Positions 1,235 to 51,022 of a stretch of DNA of 64,000 nucleotides are shown piece after piece. Position 1 is the stretch's first letter. The number at the start of each line of letters is the position of its first letter. Made by a program: the position numbers and the translations under genes. Under the pieces are notes generated by a model. The model saw only the letters and a program-made list of their open reading frames with translations. It ran no database searches and was not told the DNA's origin. Origin of the DNA: Candidatus Giovannonibacteria bacterium (GTDB taxonomy: Bacteria; Patescibacteriota; Minisyncoccia; JACPKW01; UBA11713); contig JACPKW010000003.1 in NCBI GenBank assembly GCA_016186825.1, forward strand, positions 34,120-98,119, given 5' to 3'.

Positions 1235-1818
1235 GCAAAAAATGAATCTAGTTTTTCGCAAAGTTCCTTAAAAACTTCTTCAGGCGTCTGCTCCCCATTA
1301 ACTTTGATCAAATGTTTCCTTTTTTCATAGTAGTCAAGCGCAGGCCTAACATCAGTCTCAAACCAATCCATACGCGCATCAATAGCGGATTCGTTGTCGT
1401 CATAGCGCGCCCTAAGCAACAAGCGCTTTTTTGCTTCCTCCGGCGAAACCTCAAAATAAATTGCTATGGCTTGCGGCCTTCTTACAAATTCCAGCGCTTC
1501 GTCTATAAATCCAGCTTCCCGCAAACTGCGCGGCGAGCCGCTGGAAAAAACAATTTCTTCAGCGAAAACTTTTTCGCCAAAAAAACTTAACCAACCCAAA
1601 AAGGCGAACCAGTCCGGCTGGCGTTCGCCGTTATCCAGAATTTCTTTTGCGCGTTTTCCTAACAGAGACTCTTTCTCCGCAATATTCCGGAAAAAATCTC
1701 CAGTTGAGATTTCAATGGGCTTGGCCAAATCCGGGCGTCTGCGGAGCATTTCTACCTGCGTGTCCTTCCCCGATCCCGATCTGCAGGGAAATACGAATGT
1801 AGTTCCTTTTGGAATCAT
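1231..1818 (-). CDS. adk: Adenylate kinase
   Basis: P-loop-like GSGKDTQ. Position secY-adk-map is canonical. Confidence 0.75.
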   Translation of the reverse strand: MIPKGTTFVFPCRSGSGKDTQVEMLRRRPDLAKPIEISTGDFFRNIAEKESLLGKRAKEILDNGERQPDWFAFLGWLSFFGEKVFAEEIVFSSGSPRSLREAGFIDEALEFVRRPQAIAIYFEVSPEEAKKRLLLRARYDDNESAIDARMDWFETDVRPALDYYEKRKHLIKVNGEQTPEEVFKELCEKLDSFFA

Positions 1819-1950
1819 GCTTTATTTTTACAATTTTTTACAAAAATGCCAAATAATTTTATCCAGAATTTCTAGCACGCAAAATAAAAAGGAGCAAATA
1901 TCGAAAGCGAAAACGGGCGAGCCAGTTTTCAGAGAAGAGCGAATTTAGAT

Positions 1951-3240
1951 TTAATCGTATTCGCGCATTACAAGCTGGGCATCAACTTGTTTGACAGTCT
2001 CAAGCACAACGGAAACGGCAATTAATAAACTGGTGCCTCCGATAGTCAACCCGACATCTCCGGTAAGTCCTTGCGCAACGAACGGCAAAACCGCTATCAA
2101 GCCCAAAAATAGCGCCCCTACCAAGGTAATGCGATTTAAGATCCTAGCGAGAAAATCTGAAGTAGGATGCCCCGGGCGAATTCCAGGAACAAACGCTCCT
2201 TGCTTTTGGAGATTGGTCGAAATCTGATCGGGATCGAATGTAACTGCCGTATAAAAATAAGTAAAAAGAAAAACAAGCACAAAATAGAAAATTCCGTAAA
2301 GCCAGGTGCTATTTAAAAACCATAAGAGCGCTCCGGCAACGGACTGTGCAATTGAACTGCCCGATTTTGACAATATTCCCGCGAACATCTGCGGAAAAAG
2401 CAAAATTGAAAGCGCAAAGATTATCGGAATCACTCCAGCTTGATTTACGCGCAGGGGAAGATGCGTTGAAACTCCACCGTAAACTCTCATTCCGCGGATT
2501 CTTTTAGCGTAAGAAACTGGAATGGGGCGCTCCCCTTCCGTCACGATAACTACAGCCGCTATTACAGCGATCCCCGCGACCAGAAAGGCGAGAATGACTG
2601 GAATTTTAGAGGGATCAATGAAAGGAAAGCCCTGCTGCGAAATTTTAAAAAACTGCTGCTGAAGCGCAGAGGGGATGCTCGAAACAATGCCTGCAAAAAT
2701 CAAAAGCGAGATCCCATTTCCAATTCCTTTTTCTGAAATCAACTCGCCAAGCCACATTAGAAAAACAGAGCCTCCGGTAATTATTACTATATTTACCAGC
2801 CTTGCCGCCATAGTTAAATTTTCGATTATACCTTGGCGCTCAAGCAAAACCAATAGGGCAAAACCCTGAAGAATCGCGAGCGGTACGGTCAAAAGCCTGG
2901 AATACTGATTGAATTTCTTTCGCCCCATTTCGCCTTCCTCGGAATAAATTTCCTTAAGGCGCGGAATAATCATTGTCAAGAGCTGCATAATAATGGAAGC
3001 CGTAATGTAGGGCCCCACTCCAAGCATCACAATCGAAAGGTTATCCAAAGCGCCTCCTGAAAAAATATTTAAAAGCCCGAAAAGCTGGTTGCCCTGAAAA
3101 AGACGCTCCAGTTCCGCCACATTTATGCCCGGAATAGGCAAAGCTGCTCCTATTCTAAACACCACCAAAATTCCGAGAACGAAAAGAATCTTTTTTCGAA
3201 GATCCTTATCTTTAAAAATTAATGCAAGTCTTTCAAACAT
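1951..3240 (-). CDS. secY: Preprotein translocase subunit SecY
   Basis: 429 aa, 10-TM profile, SecY motifs. Follows rplO as in the spc operon. Confidence 0.95.
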   Translation of the reverse strand: MFERLALIFKDKDLRKKILFVLGILVVFRIGAALPIPGINVAELERLFQGNQLFGLLNIFSGGALDNLSIVMLGVGPYITASIIMQLLTMIIPRLKEIYSEEGEMGRKKFNQYSRLLTVPLAILQGFALLVLLERQGIIENLTMAARLVNIVIITGGSVFLMWLGELISEKGIGNGISLLIFAGIVSSIPSALQQQFFKISQQGFPFIDPSKIPVILAFLVAGIAVIAAVVIVTEGERPIPVSYAKRIRGMRVYGGVSTHLPLRVNQAGVIPIIFALSILLFPQMFAGILSKSGSSIAQSVAGALLWFLNSTWLYGIFYFVLVFLFTYFYTAVTFDPDQISTNLQKQGAFVPGIRPGHPTSDFLARILNRITLVGALFLGLIAVLPFVAQGLTGDVGLTIGGTSLLIAVSVVLETVKQVDAQLVMREYD

Positions 3241-45003: not shown

Positions 45004-45137
45004 TTTGTTTTGAAAACTCTTTTTTCGCCATCACTTTTTCAGGAGAACGGCATAAATTTCTGCTGAAATTTTGCCTCGTTCTCGCCCGCCTACGCTGGCT
45101 CCGAAAGTCTCCTCGAAAAAGTATGGCTCAACGAGTT

Positions 45138-45599
45138 TCAAATTAGAAGTTTAATTTCGCGCGATGTTCTCGAAATTAATTTAAATTTTAATTTGAAATA
45201 ATTTTTCGGAAGGATTTTTTGGACTAAGTCTGCCCACTCGATCAGCAAAATATTGTTAGGATTGTTTAAAAGGCTTTTGAAACCGAGCGCTAAAAATTCT
45301 TTTGAATCACTGATTCGGTAAGCATCAAAATGAAAGAAATGGGACTTTGACTTCGGAACTCTGAAAACACGCATTAAAATAAAAGTCGGGCTTTTCATCT
45401 CCTCTTTAATCCCGAGCCCTTTTGCAAATCCTTTTGTAAAGGAAGTCTTCCCCGCACCCAATTCACCCTCAAGACCTATTACTAGAGCTTTTTTCTGTCT
45501 GGTTCGGGCGCTAAAAATTTTCAGTTCCCGCGCGAAAAGCTCCGCAAATTTCTTCGTTTCTTTTTCGTTTTTTGTAGTAACCCGCAAAGCCTCCGTCAT
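45138..45599 (-). CDS. tsaE: tRNA t6A37 biosynthesis ATPase TsaE (YjeE)
   Basis: GELGAGKTSFTKG Walker A. 153 aa. Confidence 0.8.
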   Translation of the reverse strand: MTEALRVTTKNEKETKKFAELFARELKIFSARTRQKKALVIGLEGELGAGKTSFTKGFAKGLGIKEEMKSPTFILMRVFRVPKSKSHFFHFDAYRISDSKEFLALGFKSLLNNPNNILLIEWADLVQKILPKNYFKLKFKLISRTSREIKLLI

Positions 45600-46196: not shown

Positions 46197-47345
46197 ATGG
46201 ACGAGAGAATGGAAGCAATAAAAAACCTTATGGCGGGGGCGTCTAAAGCCGCGCTCGTCATTCCCGCGAGCCCGACAGAAGAGGAATTTTTGCTTGAAGA
46301 AATTTTACGCGAGGCGCTCGAAAAGACCGGAAAAAAAGTTTATGTCTCGAAGGGCGACACCGAGAAATATAAAAATAACTGGCGCGATTTCATAAAATCG
46401 CCCGTTTCGCAGTTTCCAGAAAAAATTTACATAAGATTTCCCGGAAAAATAGAATTTGAGGGAATCTCGCAAACTAATGAAGCGCTCCTCACATTCGCGC
46501 CCGACGCGCCGATGCCGCTTGAAAACATCCAGATTCAAAAAGGGCTTGCCGTCCCCGACGCGCTGATCGCATTTGTCGAAAATAAAGATGCGCTTTCATC
46601 CAGAAACCTTGAAATTACTCTCCCTGAAGAAAGCAAAATGATTTTTCTCGGATCTAAAACACGCACACTTTCAGAAAAAATTTTTGATCTCGTTAAATTG
46701 ATCTCGCCTGAAGTGGCGGGAAGCAAGTCGACAATGCTTTACGGAGCGCTTGCAATCGAAACGAAACAATTTTCAAAAAATTTAAGCGCGGGCGTTTTCG
46801 GACTCGCAAAAACTCTCCTTGAGGCAGGCGCGAAGCCAGACTCAATCTCCGGGCGGCTTAATAAAACAGAGAATCTTTCGGCCGGGGAGATTCAGCTTTT
46901 GGGCCGCGCGCTTGCGCGAAGCATGGATGATCAGGCGCTGAAGATTTTCTGGACTTTTTTGGCCGCAACAGATTTTGAAAAAACGCACATCGGCTCGAGC
47001 GAAGAAAAAATAATTTCACTCCAGCAAAGAATTGCAAAATATTCGCCCAAGGACTGCGTTATGCTTATTCTCTGGGAAAATAGCGACAGAAAAGTTTTTG
47101 GATTAGCGGCGGGTGAAGGCGAACGCCTAATTTTACTCGCAAACTCGCTTGGCGCGGCGCTCAAGAATAATAATTTATTTTTCGGGCCTTACGAAAATTT
47201 CTCGAGCGCAGAAAAAGCGCTCCGGGATATCTTCAAAGGGAAAAGCCAGGCTGAAATTTCGCGCAATTTGTCGGGAAATTCTCTTTCGGCCTTTGAAATA
47301 AAAACCGGAGAAGCGAACACGCATAAGCCCACGGACTTAATTTAG
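46197..47345 (+). CDS. Hypothetical protein (382 aa) upstream of the PilB-like ATPase
   Basis: No canonical motifs. No DHH/GGGH motifs found. Confidence 0.4.
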   Translation: MDERMEAIKNLMAGASKAALVIPASPTEEEFLLEEILREALEKTGKKVYVSKGDTEKYKNNWRDFIKSPVSQFPEKIYIRFPGKIEFEGISQTNEALLTFAPDAPMPLENIQIQKGLAVPDALIAFVENKDALSSRNLEITLPEESKMIFLGSKTRTLSEKIFDLVKLISPEVAGSKSTMLYGALAIETKQFSKNLSAGVFGLAKTLLEAGAKPDSISGRLNKTENLSAGEIQLLGRALARSMDDQALKIFWTFLAATDFEKTHIGSSEEKIISLQQRIAKYSPKDCVMLILWENSDRKVFGLAAGEGERLILLANSLGAALKNNNLFFGPYENFSSAEKALRDIFKGKSQAEISRNLSGNSLSAFEIKTGEANTHKPTDLI

Positions 47346-47438: not shown

Positions 47439-49109
47439 ATGACTAAATTTGATGAAGCAGAGGGCAAAAAGAAATTAGCGGAACTCTACGAAAAGGAGGC
47501 TGAAGATCTCGCAAGAATTCTTGCCCAAAAGCACGCCATCCCCTATTTAGATCTTTCGAGAATTACAATTGATCTCGATTCCCTAAAGATTCTCTCGGAA
47601 AATGAAGCCCGCGAAGGCGAAATGGCGGTATTCCAGTCCATCGGGAGGCGACTCCAGATTGCGGTAAAAAATCCGGAGCTTCTAAAAACCAAGGAAATCG
47701 TGGACGACCTTAGGAGAAAACAATACGAGCCGGAGCTTTTTCAGGTATCTGAAATGAGCATGAAAAAAGCTTTCTCGCGCTATCCGGAAATTCCAGCTTT
47801 TGTGGAAGTTTCTTCGGGCATTATTGATATCTCTCCCGCAAAGCTTGAAAGCTTTAAAGAAAAAGTTACGGGGCTTGAAAGTTTGAAAGAACTTTTGACA
47901 CAAGTTTCAGCCGCACGGGAATCGCGAAAAGTCTCAGAGGTCGTTGAAATTCTCCTGGCGGGTTCGCTTTCGCTCGAAGCATCCGATATTCATATCGAGC
48001 CCGAAGAAGATCGCGCCAATATCCGCTTCAGGCTGGACGGCGTGCTTGTTGATGTAATTTCATTTACGAAAAACATTTACCAGCTGCTTGCCTCAAGAAT
48101 AAAGCTGATCTCTGAAATAAAATTAAACATCAAAGACCGCGCGCAGGACGGGCGCTTCACAATCCGCACCAAAGAACACGATATTGAGGCAAGAACGGCG
48201 GTCCTTCCCGGGCCGTATGGGGAATCGATTGTGCTGCGCGTCTTGCAGCCGCAGGCAATCAGCATGTCTTTTGAAAATCTTGGAATGCGCCCGGAGCTTT
48301 TGGAAATAATTGCCTCTGAACTTAAAAGACCAAACGGGATGATTCTCACGACGGGACCGACAGGATCGGGGAAAACCACAACGCTTTATGCTTTCATAAA
48401 AAAAATTGCAACGCCCGAAATTAAAATTGTTACAATTGAAGACCCGATCGAATACCGTCTGCCCGGAATTACCCAAACCCAAGTTGACCAAAAGAAAGGG
48501 TATGACTTTTCCAACGGGCTGCGCTCTATTTTGCGCCAAGACCCAGATATAATTCTCGTCGGCGAGATCCGAGATTTTGAAACGGCAGAAATATCCATGC
48601 ACGCCGCGCTCACCGGACACTTGGTTTTTTCAACCCTTCACACCAACGATGCCGCCGGAACTATTCCGCGCTTGATTGACCTTGGAGTAAAACCCAACAT
48701 CATCGCGCCCGCAATAAATGTTTCCATGGCCCAGCGGCTCGTTCGAAAACTTTGCCCAAACTGCGCGAAAAAAACTGAAGCTGAAAATAATGAGTTGGAA
48801 TTTATTAAAAAGGGCGTTCGTAGCCTGCCCGCAAAATATAAAAAACCTGAACTTGCTGGTTTAACTTTGCCACGGCCCGGAAAATGCAAAGCTTGTAATG
48901 AAACCGGCTACAAAGGCCGCGTTGGAATTTTTGAGGCAATTTTGATCGATGAAAAAATGGAACGGATGATTCTTGAAAGCCCATCCGAGGCGGCAATTCT
49001 GAACGCCGCGAAAGAACAGGGCATACTTACGCTCACGCAGGATGGAATATTAAAAGTTCTTGAGGGGATAACTTCCCTTGAAGAACTCCGGAGAGTTGCA
49101 GGAGAATAG
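47439..49109 (+). CDS. Type II/IV secretion system ATPase (GspE/PilB family)
   Basis: Walker A GPTGSGKTTT. Asp box. His box. Tetracysteine CPNC...CKAC. Confidence 0.9.
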   Translation: MTKFDEAEGKKKLAELYEKEAEDLARILAQKHAIPYLDLSRITIDLDSLKILSENEAREGEMAVFQSIGRRLQIAVKNPELLKTKEIVDDLRRKQYEPELFQVSEMSMKKAFSRYPEIPAFVEVSSGIIDISPAKLESFKEKVTGLESLKELLTQVSAARESRKVSEVVEILLAGSLSLEASDIHIEPEEDRANIRFRLDGVLVDVISFTKNIYQLLASRIKLISEIKLNIKDRAQDGRFTIRTKEHDIEARTAVLPGPYGESIVLRVLQPQAISMSFENLGMRPELLEIIASELKRPNGMILTTGPTGSGKTTTLYAFIKKIATPEIKIVTIEDPIEYRLPGITQTQVDQKKGYDFSNGLRSILRQDPDIILVGEIRDFETAEISMHAALTGHLVFSTLHTNDAAGTIPRLIDLGVKPNIIAPAINVSMAQRLVRKLCPNCAKKTEAENNELEFIKKGVRSLPAKYKKPELAGLTLPRPGKCKACNETGYKGRVGIFEAILIDEKMERMILESPSEAAILNAAKEQGILTLTQDGILKVLEGITSLEELRRVAGE

Positions 49110-49127
49110 AATTGGCAATTCCTACCT

Positions 49128-49277
49128 AAAGTCTCTAGGCAATTCTCGCACCAAGGGTAGCGCGAGTTAAGGAGCATTCTTGGGATAGGCCTCGCGTAAA
49201 ACGCCGAAACGCCTGCCAGGACGTCCTACAAGTAAGACCCCAGTTTGAGCAATAAAGCTTAATCGCCTAGAGACTTT
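49128..49277 (+). ncRNA. Candidate structured RNA element between the pilB-like gene and ruvB
   Basis: A perfect 13-bp closing helix (aaagtctctaggc / gcctagagacttt) encloses about 125 nt. Inside are nested hairpins (ctcgc..gcgag, gcgtaaaacgc, ggacgtcc). Confidence 0.25.
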
Positions 49278-49367
49278 AGATAGGTATTGTTATTCGGAAC
49301 GATTTATTAAAGCGGATATAGCTTAACAAAAAAATACTGCACTGTCAATAGCGCTAAATAATATCAA

Positions 49368-50384
49368 ATGGCACTCACAAACCCCAAAATTCAAAAAGAA
49401 GATAATTCGCTCGATCAAACCCTGCGCCCGCAATCCTTTCAGGAATACATCGGGCAAGAAAATGTAAAAAATAATCTTAAAATCTTGATCCAGGCAGCCC
49501 AGGAGCGCTCCGAACCGATCGAGCATATTTTGTTTTACGGTCCTCCGGGCCTCGGAAAAACCACTCTCGCGCATCTGATCGCGCGGGAACTCCGCGCTCA
49601 AATCAAAGTTACCTCTGGGCCGGCAATCGAACGCGTCGGGGATCTCGCATCCATTCTTACAAATCTCTCGCCCGGCGATATTTTATTTATCGATGAGGCG
49701 CACCGCTTGAATAAACTGATTGAGGAAATTCTTTATCCCGCGCTCGAATCGCGTTCCCTTGATATCGTAATCGGAAAAGGGCCCTCCGCAAGAACTATCC
49801 AGCTCGAGCTCCCACCCTTCACTTTAATCGCGGCGACTACAAGGATCGCGCTCCTCTCTTCCCCGCTTCGCTCCCGATTTTCCGGCGGAACATACCGCTT
49901 GGAATATTACAGTTTTGCTGAGATAGAAAGTATTATCGAAAGGTCCGCAAAGTTGCTCGGTATTGAAATCGAAAAGGAAGCGGTAGGAGAAATTGCAAAA
50001 AGATCGCGTTTCACGCCGCGGGTTTCAAACAGGCTTTTAAAGCGGTGCAGAGACTTTGCTCAAGTTGAAAAGTCGGATCGGATCACAGCTCAATTTGCCC
50101 TGCAAGCACTGGATTTAATGCGGATCGATCCGATGGGGCTCGAGTCAACCGATCGGATGATTTTAAATACGCTAATTTCAAAATTCGGCGGCGGACCGGT
50201 CGGGCTTTCCACGCTCGCGGCCGCCACTTCGGAAGAAAGGGAAACGATTGAAGAAGTCTACGAGCCGTATTTGATGCAGTTGGGCTTTTTGGAGCGGACT
50301 TCGCGCGGCAGGCTCGCAACGAACAAAGCATTCGAACACCTAAAGCATAAAGCTCCCGTTGAAGCGCAATCGAAATTGGTTTAA
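49368..50384 (+). CDS. ruvB: Holliday junction DNA helicase RuvB
   Basis: GPPGLGKTTLAHLIA. AAA+ sensor motifs. Winged-helix C-terminus. Confidence 0.95.
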   Translation: MALTNPKIQKEDNSLDQTLRPQSFQEYIGQENVKNNLKILIQAAQERSEPIEHILFYGPPGLGKTTLAHLIARELRAQIKVTSGPAIERVGDLASILTNLSPGDILFIDEAHRLNKLIEEILYPALESRSLDIVIGKGPSARTIQLELPPFTLIAATTRIALLSSPLRSRFSGGTYRLEYYSFAEIESIIERSAKLLGIEIEKEAVGEIAKRSRFTPRVSNRLLKRCRDFAQVEKSDRITAQFALQALDLMRIDPMGLESTDRMILNTLISKFGGGPVGLSTLAAATSEERETIEEVYEPYLMQLGFLERTSRGRLATNKAFEHLKHKAPVEAQSKLV

Positions 50385-50417
50385 AAAAAAGAATACCGCC
50401 ACGGCTTTCACCGTGGC
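50383..50417 (-). terminator. Rho-independent terminator (stem gccacgg/ccgtggc + T-run on the minus strand)
   Basis: Hairpin 50398-50417 is followed, on the minus strand, by tttttttt. Sits after the 50438..51022 gene. Confidence 0.4.
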
Positions 50418-50437
50418 AGTTGAAAAAGCTGAAGGTC

Positions 50438-51022
50438 CTACAAACAAAAGCAATGAGCGAGCCTCTTTATGCCGAGCCAGGCGGCAATTTGCCGCCCAAG
50501 AATTTTATCGTCTTCCCAAAAAGTATCACCATCCGCTTCAGAGTAAAGAACCAAAAGCTTTTTTATTGAAGTTTCACCGTCCTTGCAGGCGATTTCCCGT
50601 TCAAGAAGCTCTGAAACTCTTTCGGCGAAATCGCGCGATTTTTCGAGACAACGAAATCTCGCTCGCATTTTCATCGTCTGATTGAGAAGATGAGACGGAA
50701 GCGCGCGTAACGGCATATGAAAGCACCACCCCGTTACTTCTCCAAATTCAGAGGCGTGCACTCCATATTCCTCTACTCTTGTGCCCGCCTTACGTCTAGC
50801 CGGAACAGAAAGTCTCGGCAACGCCGAACAAATTTTTTTCCTTTCTTCCGGGTCCGAAAGAATCCGAACGGGTTTTGGGAAAAGAAACACAATTAATTTA
50901 TTTTGACCTTCGGATTCTACCGCAACTAAAACCTTGAGCGATTTAGCGATTTCGGGCGCTTCTTTTTGCAAGCCCTCCTTGTAAAGAGCCACCAACCTAT
51001 CCAGAATGATTCGATAGTCCAC
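50438..51022 (-). CDS. Hypothetical protein (194 aa)
   Basis: ORF with a terminator downstream. No motif recognised. Confidence 0.4.
   Translation of the reverse strand: MDYRIILDRLVALYKEGLQKEAPEIAKSLKVLVAVESEGQNKLIVFLFPKPVRILSDPEERKKICSALPRLSVPARRKAGTRVEEYGVHASEFGEVTGWCFHMPLRALPSHLLNQTMKMRARFRCLEKSRDFAERVSELLEREIACKDGETSIKKLLVLYSEADGDTFWEDDKILGRQIAAWLGIKRLAHCFCL

Follow-up and report, generated by a model that had tools for sequence, protein, structure and literature searches.

What occupies the spacer between a PilB-like ATPase gene and ruvB in this 64-kb stretch of a Candidatus Giovannonibacteria contig (JACPKW010000003.1; the whole stretch is referred to as the window), and from which strand is it read? 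The spacer spans 258 nucleotides (nt; 49110-49367) and holds a long inverted repeat. The reading favoured overall, with a probability of roughly 60%, is that it carries a previously undescribed gene for a structured small RNA on the minus strand, whose product is likely abundant, protein-binding and trans-acting and whose promoter competes with ruvB. The PilB-like gene (47439..49109, plus strand), for a T2SSE secretion/pilus ATPase (Pfam PF00437, expectation value E = 8e-118), is convergent with the RNA gene, and ruvB (49368..50384, plus strand; Pfam RuvB_N, AAA_lid_4 and RuvB_C) is divergent from it; Pfam here agrees with the identities given in an earlier note made from the sequence alone.

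That note had described a perfect 13-bp helix, and 49128-49140 (AAAGTCTCTAGGC) is indeed the exact reverse complement of 49265-49277 (GCCTAGAGACTTT). The pairing is exact, but these segments are only the core of a longer closing stem with 29-nt arms (49116-49144 and 49261-49289), which an inverted-repeat search found to be 90% complementary with 116 nt between them. By our own arithmetic the chance expectation for a perfect 13-bp inverted repeat in 258 nt is ~5e-4, and no second copy of the arm sequence was found elsewhere in the window. The enclosed segment is G+C-enriched, as had been reported (0.55 vs 0.32-0.45 in the flanks), and nested hairpins are predicted in it on either strand (258-nt spacer: z = -5.1 for the plus strand and -5.4 for the minus strand; 0/200 shuffles fold equally well). 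The spacer is otherwise non-coding, with only mechanical open reading frames (ORFs) clipping its edges.

The closest RuvB relatives (60-70% identity) belong to Parcubacteria/Paceibacteria-type Patescibacteria (Ryan-, Kaiser-, Zambryski- and Sungbacteria, 'Minisyncoccia'). An nhmmer search with the element matched the spacer upstream of ruvB in four close relatives, and inspection by eye identified it in almost all of the closest ones, with arms of the form ATCTCTAAGCAAT...ATTGCTTAGAGAT or covarying forms (e.g. CGTGGGCAAT...ATTGCCCACG). A covariance model, R1, detected the element beside ruvB in 26 of the 27 closest RuvB relatives, with L030, L031, L034 and L056 as weaker members, and two sequences held out of the model still scored E ~1e-12; the copy studied here, the only one in the window, scored 98.5 bits (E = 5e-25). 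Beside the ruvB genes of Chloroflexi, Firmicutes and other classes of the candidate phyla, R1 matched nothing. Two sets of loci were compared: a genome set of 80 loci from species-representative genomes, retrieved by RuvB protein, and a metagenome set of 120 loci from contigs scanned for the two arms of the closing helix (P1) alone, 118 of which had strong R1 matches. Linkage to ruvB is thus present by construction in the former and invariance of P1 by construction in the latter, so that each set supplies the test that the other cannot. In total the element was seen in >140 Minisyncoccia (Parcubacteria/Paceibacteria-type) sequences, one per locus, with the same promoter and fold.

The transcribed sequence folds as a four-way junction of P1 and three inner helices (P2, P3 and P4), with only 0-3 unpaired bases between helices. 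P1 is about 27-33 bp long including an outer extension (median 11 pairs beyond the model). In the genome set 84.6% of alignment cells form standard pairs, vs ~51% with partners slid by one column, and 44/53 pairs have changes on both sides, values reached by none of 500 shuffles. For the 74 distinct sequences of the metagenome set the paired share is 87.1% vs <=53% when slid, the covariation score is 0.357 vs <0.1, and P2, P3 and P4 all covary. Helix by helix, compensatory changes affect 13/15 P1 pairs in a first alignment of ruvB-selected relatives and 15/17 in a later one; double changes affect 5/6 P2 pairs in the genome set and 6/6 in the metagenome set, with only ~75% of cells paired, and 8/9 and 9/9 P4 pairs, respectively, with 92% of cells paired in the metagenome set. 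Within the genome set P1 has an almost invariant core sequence, while the other stems vary freely. The P3 core (AGGAC-G..CUGG opposite CUG(G)..C-UA-UCCU) is nearly invariant, including invariant G-C pairs; in most relatives CUGG of one strand pairs with CUGG of the other via a tandem U·G/G·U wobble, which is kept in 18-19/23 and 54-60/74 sequences. The comparative alignment proposed in the earlier note therefore bears out the structured RNA that it suggested: in orthologous spacers the closing helix and the three inner ones persist through many compensatory changes. The note had left the strand unaddressed.

As an inverted repeat reads alike on both strands, the strand had to be argued. Very probably the element is a small-RNA gene read from the minus strand, whereas pilB and ruvB both lie on the plus strand. 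A sigma-70-type promoter was found on the strand opposite ruvB in 129/129 non-redundant loci, with a perfect TTGACA in 127, a TG extension in 128, a 17-nt spacer in 119 and a -10 hexamer that always reads TANNNT. A generic promoter scan of the region reported no promoter, because the -10 hexamer in the window matches TATAAT at only 3/6 positions. G·U pairs on the minus strand outnumber A·C mismatches, both at pairs with a Watson-Crick majority (62 vs 20 and 121 vs 31) and over all modelled pairs (189 vs 45), and UUCG tetraloops are confined to this strand (38 vs 0). Downstream of P1, hairpin-plus-U terminators (25 minus, 7 plus) and directly adjoining U-rich tracts (23 minus, 3 plus) show the same preference, a U-rich tract past P1 being present in 32/125 relatives. 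For relatives whose leaders are shortest, the start is inferred to lie right at the base of P1, which speaks for independence from ruvB mRNA. The minimum free energy (MFE) is also lower for the minus strand (-1386 vs -1142 kcal/mol in sum; lower in 23/25 sequences), a difference given little weight because it shrank after control for composition. An independent small-RNA gene is thus supported by its own promoter, terminator signals that are enriched though not universal and RNA-type pairing, all on the same strand.

In the window, the promoter consists of a TTGACA -35 hexamer (49343..49348, minus strand), 20 nt from the ruvB ATG, and an extended -10 (TGT then TAAGCT; 49320..49328, minus strand) 17 nt past it, both read directly from the sequence. 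Transcription probably starts near 49313 (+/-2), placed ~7 nt past the -10, and probably ends near 49100 in a U-rich stretch past P1, giving a stable RNA of ~190-215 nt with its ends locked in P1. The predicted minus-strand transcript (49313->49098) has an MFE of -81 kcal/mol (z = -6.35). Along it, a short 5' leader (49296..49313) is followed by the P1 5' arm (49261..49295; main arm 49261-49289 and four outer pairs at 49292-49295), which includes one strand of the 13-bp helix (49265-49277). P2, a short hairpin on the 5' side (49248..49259), folds with 3 bp here, vs 5-8 bp in most relatives. The long arm P3 (49171..49241) contains the core AGGACGUCCUGG (49216-49227) opposite CGAGGCCUAUCC (49183-49194), includes a small, asymmetric internal loop within that core, and has a GUUUCGGC hairpin (49203-49210) as its cap; the core's 3' strand reads CGAG where most relatives have CUGG. 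A conserved UUAAC (49166-49170) precedes P4, its last base (49166) being the first base of that 9-bp hairpin (49145..49166), which lies on the 3' side of the junction. The P1 3' arm (49109..49144; main arm 49116-49144, outer pairs 49109-49112) includes the other strand of the 13-bp helix (49128-49140) and leads into a U-rich 3' tail (UCUAUUCUCCU; 49098..49108), a weak terminator-like end overlapping the final codons of the convergent ATPase gene. A terminator scan also reported one site, a 5-bp hairpin with a T-run (GCGCTATTGACAGTGC AGTATTTTTT; 49339-49354, minus strand) enclosing the -35 hexamer, at about shuffle expectation, and R1 gave a weak match at 45107-45217 (plus strand; 11.5 bits, E = 0.18, G+C 0.30) that is probably due to chance.

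Several relatives carry additional features. A G+C-rich hairpin with a U-run lies between promoter and P1 in 29/129 loci (23/75 of those with leaders of at least 45 nt; e.g. L145, L101, L111, L157, L009, L105 and L099); it is not in the window copy. Attenuation or protection of the 5' end are possible roles, and it could also mark a separate, very small transcript. At the same position in L043 (2775-2942) and L059 (2812-2952), on the strand opposite ruvB and divergent from it, a 22-30-bp closing helix is preceded by a consensus promoter (TTGACA-16-TATAAT and TTGACA-17-TACAAT, respectively). Promoter and long stem are kept in these two loci, the interior differs from the four-way core and R1 barely detects or misses them; they may be distant variants of the family. 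Some elements are known to integrate at RNA genes. In L024, ~40 nt spanning the 3' end of the RNA gene are duplicated (1502-1530 and 2675-2705), and an ORF of 353 amino acids (1611-2672, plus strand), judged by eye to be helix-turn-helix-like at its N-terminus and ATPase-like in the middle, lies between the copies, with the ATPase gene on one side and the RNA gene on the other; the arrangement is suggestive of an insertion at the 3' end of the RNA gene.

How the RNA acts can be proposed from its pattern of conservation. Few unpaired bases are conserved, sequence conservation is concentrated in P1 and the P3 internal loop, and the rest of the fold is kept by compensation, which suggests a protein-bound RNA; with about even odds, it would act in trans as a structural RNA (scaffold or decoy) and not as a base-pairing regulator. 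Several points weigh against the minus-strand, protein-binding RNA as a whole. Because the alignments were fitted to a structure that had been derived from folds of the minus strand, that structure is somewhat favoured; slid partners, shuffles and the restriction to pairs with a Watson-Crick majority served as controls. Start site, 3' end and abundance are all deduced from sequence, and protein binding from the conservation pattern. The terminator in the window is weak, with no clear U-run past P1, and an obvious terminator is present in only about a quarter to two fifths of relatives. After correction for composition the folding advantage of the minus strand is modest (mean z = -7.7 vs -6.9; better in 27/40 sequences), GNRA loops are commoner on the plus strand (17 vs 8), and P1 carries ~10 A·C mismatches on the proposed RNA strand.

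The promoter is closely tied to ruvB in position. Among the loci retrieved by the P1 arms, 105 extend for 600 nt or more beyond the RNA on its upstream side, and in every one of these ruvB is found there in divergent orientation, 46-423 nt away; on the downstream side, 91/95 metagenome loci have a convergent gene for a pilus-ATPase homologue. In 93/116 loci the CAT after TTGACA is, on the complementary strand, the ATG of ruvB, so that the first two ruvB codons (ATG TCA) are part of the -35 element, and in 91 of these 93 the overlapping ATG is the first start codon of the ORF; the window differs, its ruvB ATG lying 20 nt beyond the -35. Between P1 and ruvB no ruvB-sense promoter signal rises above shuffles (7.65 vs 7.45). 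Transcription of ruvB would come from a weak promoter overlapping that of the RNA, or from pilB by read-through across the RNA gene in antisense, and either route would contend with a strong opposing promoter. In back-to-back promoter modules, polymerase occupancy at one promoter should exclude the other. Polymerase at the RNA promoter should exclude or collide with ruvB transcription, with the consequence that ruvB output would be inversely coupled to RNA synthesis; that this coupling matters physiologically is a tentative suggestion, at somewhat less than even odds. The promoter architecture would in this way add a cis effect on ruvB to any role in trans.

As an alternative it is possible, though unlikely, that the locus works mainly in cis, head-to-head transcription repressing or insulating ruvB and ending pilB read-through by promoter occlusion, polymerase collision or antisense pairing with any pilB-ruvB read-through mRNA, with the RNA product secondary. 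The overlap of the -35 with the ruvB start codon, the lack of a ruvB-sense promoter signal in the spacer and the strictly conserved pilB-RNA-ruvB arrangement are all consistent with this, as is the lack of a plus-strand terminator past pilB (A-runs before P1 are rare, 3/126). However, such a role leaves four covarying helices, the conserved sequence of P1 and the P3 loop and the long closing helix unexplained, and the frequent UUCG tetraloops are ill suited to kissing contacts in antisense pairing. The locus resembles overlapping divergent promoters and transcriptional-interference modules in having a strong promoter back-to-back with a gene start, but here the -35 itself is formed by the neighbour's first two codons in most members, and the product is a conserved structured RNA and not a simple antisense transcript.

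Known RNA classes were screened with Rfam 15 (all 4227 families), the whole window at gathering threshold and the region together with 15 homologues in E-value mode. Apart from tRNAs at other sites only chance matches were obtained, the region itself matching nothing at either gathering or permissive cut-offs, and ARAGORN found no tRNA or transfer-messenger RNA (tmRNA) within 48900-49500; the earlier note, which had seen no resemblance to RNase P RNA, signal recognition particle (SRP) RNA, tmRNA or 6S RNA, is in agreement with both. The structured RNA stands despite the lack of a cmscan match, because orthologous spacers conserve the closing helix. RarA is an AAA+ relative of RuvB. In Firmicutes 6S genes adjoin rarA, a recombination ATPase gene, and synteny can be the sole means of finding aberrant 6S RNAs, which covariance models may miss (PMC8414754). 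Of the known kinds of RNA, 6S RNA comes closest, and a highly diverged 6S-type RNA, which would bind the sigma-70 holoenzyme as an open-promoter mimic, is the likeliest of the named modes of action, though itself rather improbable. In such an RNA, P1 would correspond to the closing stem, the P2 region to the 5' central domain, P3 to the apical stem and P4 to the hairpin opposite, with the conserved P1 5' strand as template for product RNA. The size (~190 nt), strong promoter and single copy would fit, the conserved 13-nt stretch adjoins the 5' central region, and the order of elements is the canonical one (closing stem, 5' central region, apical stem with internal loops, 3'-side hairpin; PMC8414754). 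However, RF00013 and related models gave no match on either strand, at E <= 10 for window 49000-49500 and at E <= 5 for the 15 homologues. Order and sizes suit a rod-with-bulge layout, but the 5' central region looks more like a covarying hairpin than an open bulge (5-6/6 pairs compensated; ~75% paired, only 3 bp in the window). The putative template, AAUCUCUAAGCAAY, lacks CC and hence the GG hallmark of product RNAs, and masking it produced no shared 'collapse' helix, the 3' arm being unpaired in 58/126 sequences and having scattered partners in the rest. Unlike in 6S RNA, the closing-stem sequence is nearly invariant across the whole class. For lack of a model match, a clearly open 5' region, CC and a rearrangement helix, the RNA is not filed as 6S; were it to prove the 6S RNA of this lineage, the reach of that regulator would grow to include a major bacterial branch, and otherwise there would be a new ribonucleoprotein to explain.

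Of the two options in the earlier note, a lineage-specific small RNA is upheld and a cis-regulatory ruvB leader is not, since the element lies on the opposite strand with a promoter pointing away. A plus-strand element, either a riboswitch or protein-binding leader in the ruvB 5' untranslated region (UTR) or part of the pilB 3' UTR, is very improbable. The element invariably adjoins ruvB, the plus strand folds well too (z = -5.1; mean z = -6.9) and GNRA loops are slightly commoner on it, but A·C mismatches would exceed G·U pairs three- to fourfold, a conserved tandem C·A/A·C mismatch would sit in P3 and UUCG loops would be absent. No expression platform was seen and no plus-strand terminator was found in the window region; spacing from element to ATG varies (46-423 nt), with a near-consensus promoter for the other strand in between. 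A plus-strand leader was in fact modelled first (alignment A1) and was dropped, as G·U/A·C counts, loop types and promoter all favour the minus strand.

In the RuvAB complex on a Holliday junction, RuvA contacts all four arms, and RuvB sits on two that are opposite each other. An RNA mimic of that junction, which by binding RuvA or RuvAB would titrate or regulate branch migration, is suggested by the four-way topology with few unpaired junction bases, by two long opposite arms (P1 and P3) and two short ones (P2 and P4), which suit this architecture, and by the linkage to ruvB in 105/105 loci. It is nevertheless highly doubtful. RuvA and RuvB act on B-form DNA, conservation of P1 and P3-internal-loop sequence is unexpected where only structure is recognized, J2/3 and J3/4 carry 2-3 unpaired bases, L043 and L059 keep promoter and long stem but not the four-way core, and the linkage is explicable by the overlap of promoter and start codon. 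If true, such an RNA would hold the branch-migration motor in check, in parallel with open-promoter mimicry by 6S RNA, and would account for the gene never leaving ruvB.

A feature of the DNA only (miniature inverted-repeat transposable element, protein-binding inverted repeat or large terminator hairpin) could be imagined from the 29-nt, highly conserved arms around ~116 bp and the presence of both A·C and G·U mismatches in P1, but is scarcely credible given one copy per window, three covarying inner hairpins and a dedicated promoter, and a mobile element in particular is ruled out by the single copy in 64 kb, the same genomic context in 105/105 loci and 0 matches in viral contigs. Three further identities were rejected. 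SRP RNA and RNase P RNA gave no Rfam match, and by eye neither a GNRA-capped helix-8 motif nor a P4 motif was seen. A retron msr-msd RNA would share the inverted repeats, but no reverse transcriptase is encoded within +/-3 kb. Y RNA/YrlA gave no Rfam match, and no TROVE domain was found in called neighbours within about +/-3 kb; Y RNAs are similar in that the long helix of the 5' and 3' ends is the most conserved part, with a variable multi-helix module beyond, and differ in that the RNA described here has no T-loop-like hairpins and has ruvB and the pilus ATPase gene, not rsr, as neighbours.

The favoured minus-strand RNA would, judged by sequence, be a new family within a known kind, the independently transcribed structured RNAs of bacteria. 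Like the orphan RNAs raiA motif RNA, OLE and ROOL, it is defined by covariation, has its own transcription signals and a multi-stem fold and is restricted to a lineage; it differs from them in having no sequence or model similarity, in its lineage (Minisyncoccia) and in a promoter that overlaps the neighbour's start codon. This fusion of promoter and start codon and the almost invariant closing helix are its unusual features. Full-text literature searches found no earlier account of this RNA. Apart from rRNA, tRNA, tmRNA, RNase P RNA and SRP RNA, very few non-coding RNAs are known in the candidate phyla radiation. A class-wide, single-copy, strongly structured RNA with a near-perfect promoter is a pattern typical of a central cellular job, here in organisms with stripped-down genomes and few regulators. 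The covariance model and >140 sequences can be used for annotation, the RNA is a defined pull-down target for finding its protein partner, and the -35 that doubles as a start codon makes for a testable tie of RNA synthesis to expression of the RuvB recombination motor.

Elsewhere in the window, three tRNA genes (22033-22105, 22632-22702 and 23364-23435, minus strand) are the only Rfam matches at gathering level. ORFs without a Pfam match neighbour the locus at 46197-47345 (plus strand), 50359-50685 (plus strand) and 50438-51022 (minus strand); the last of these, right after ruvB, encodes 194 amino acids and is present as a gene call in all copies of this contig.

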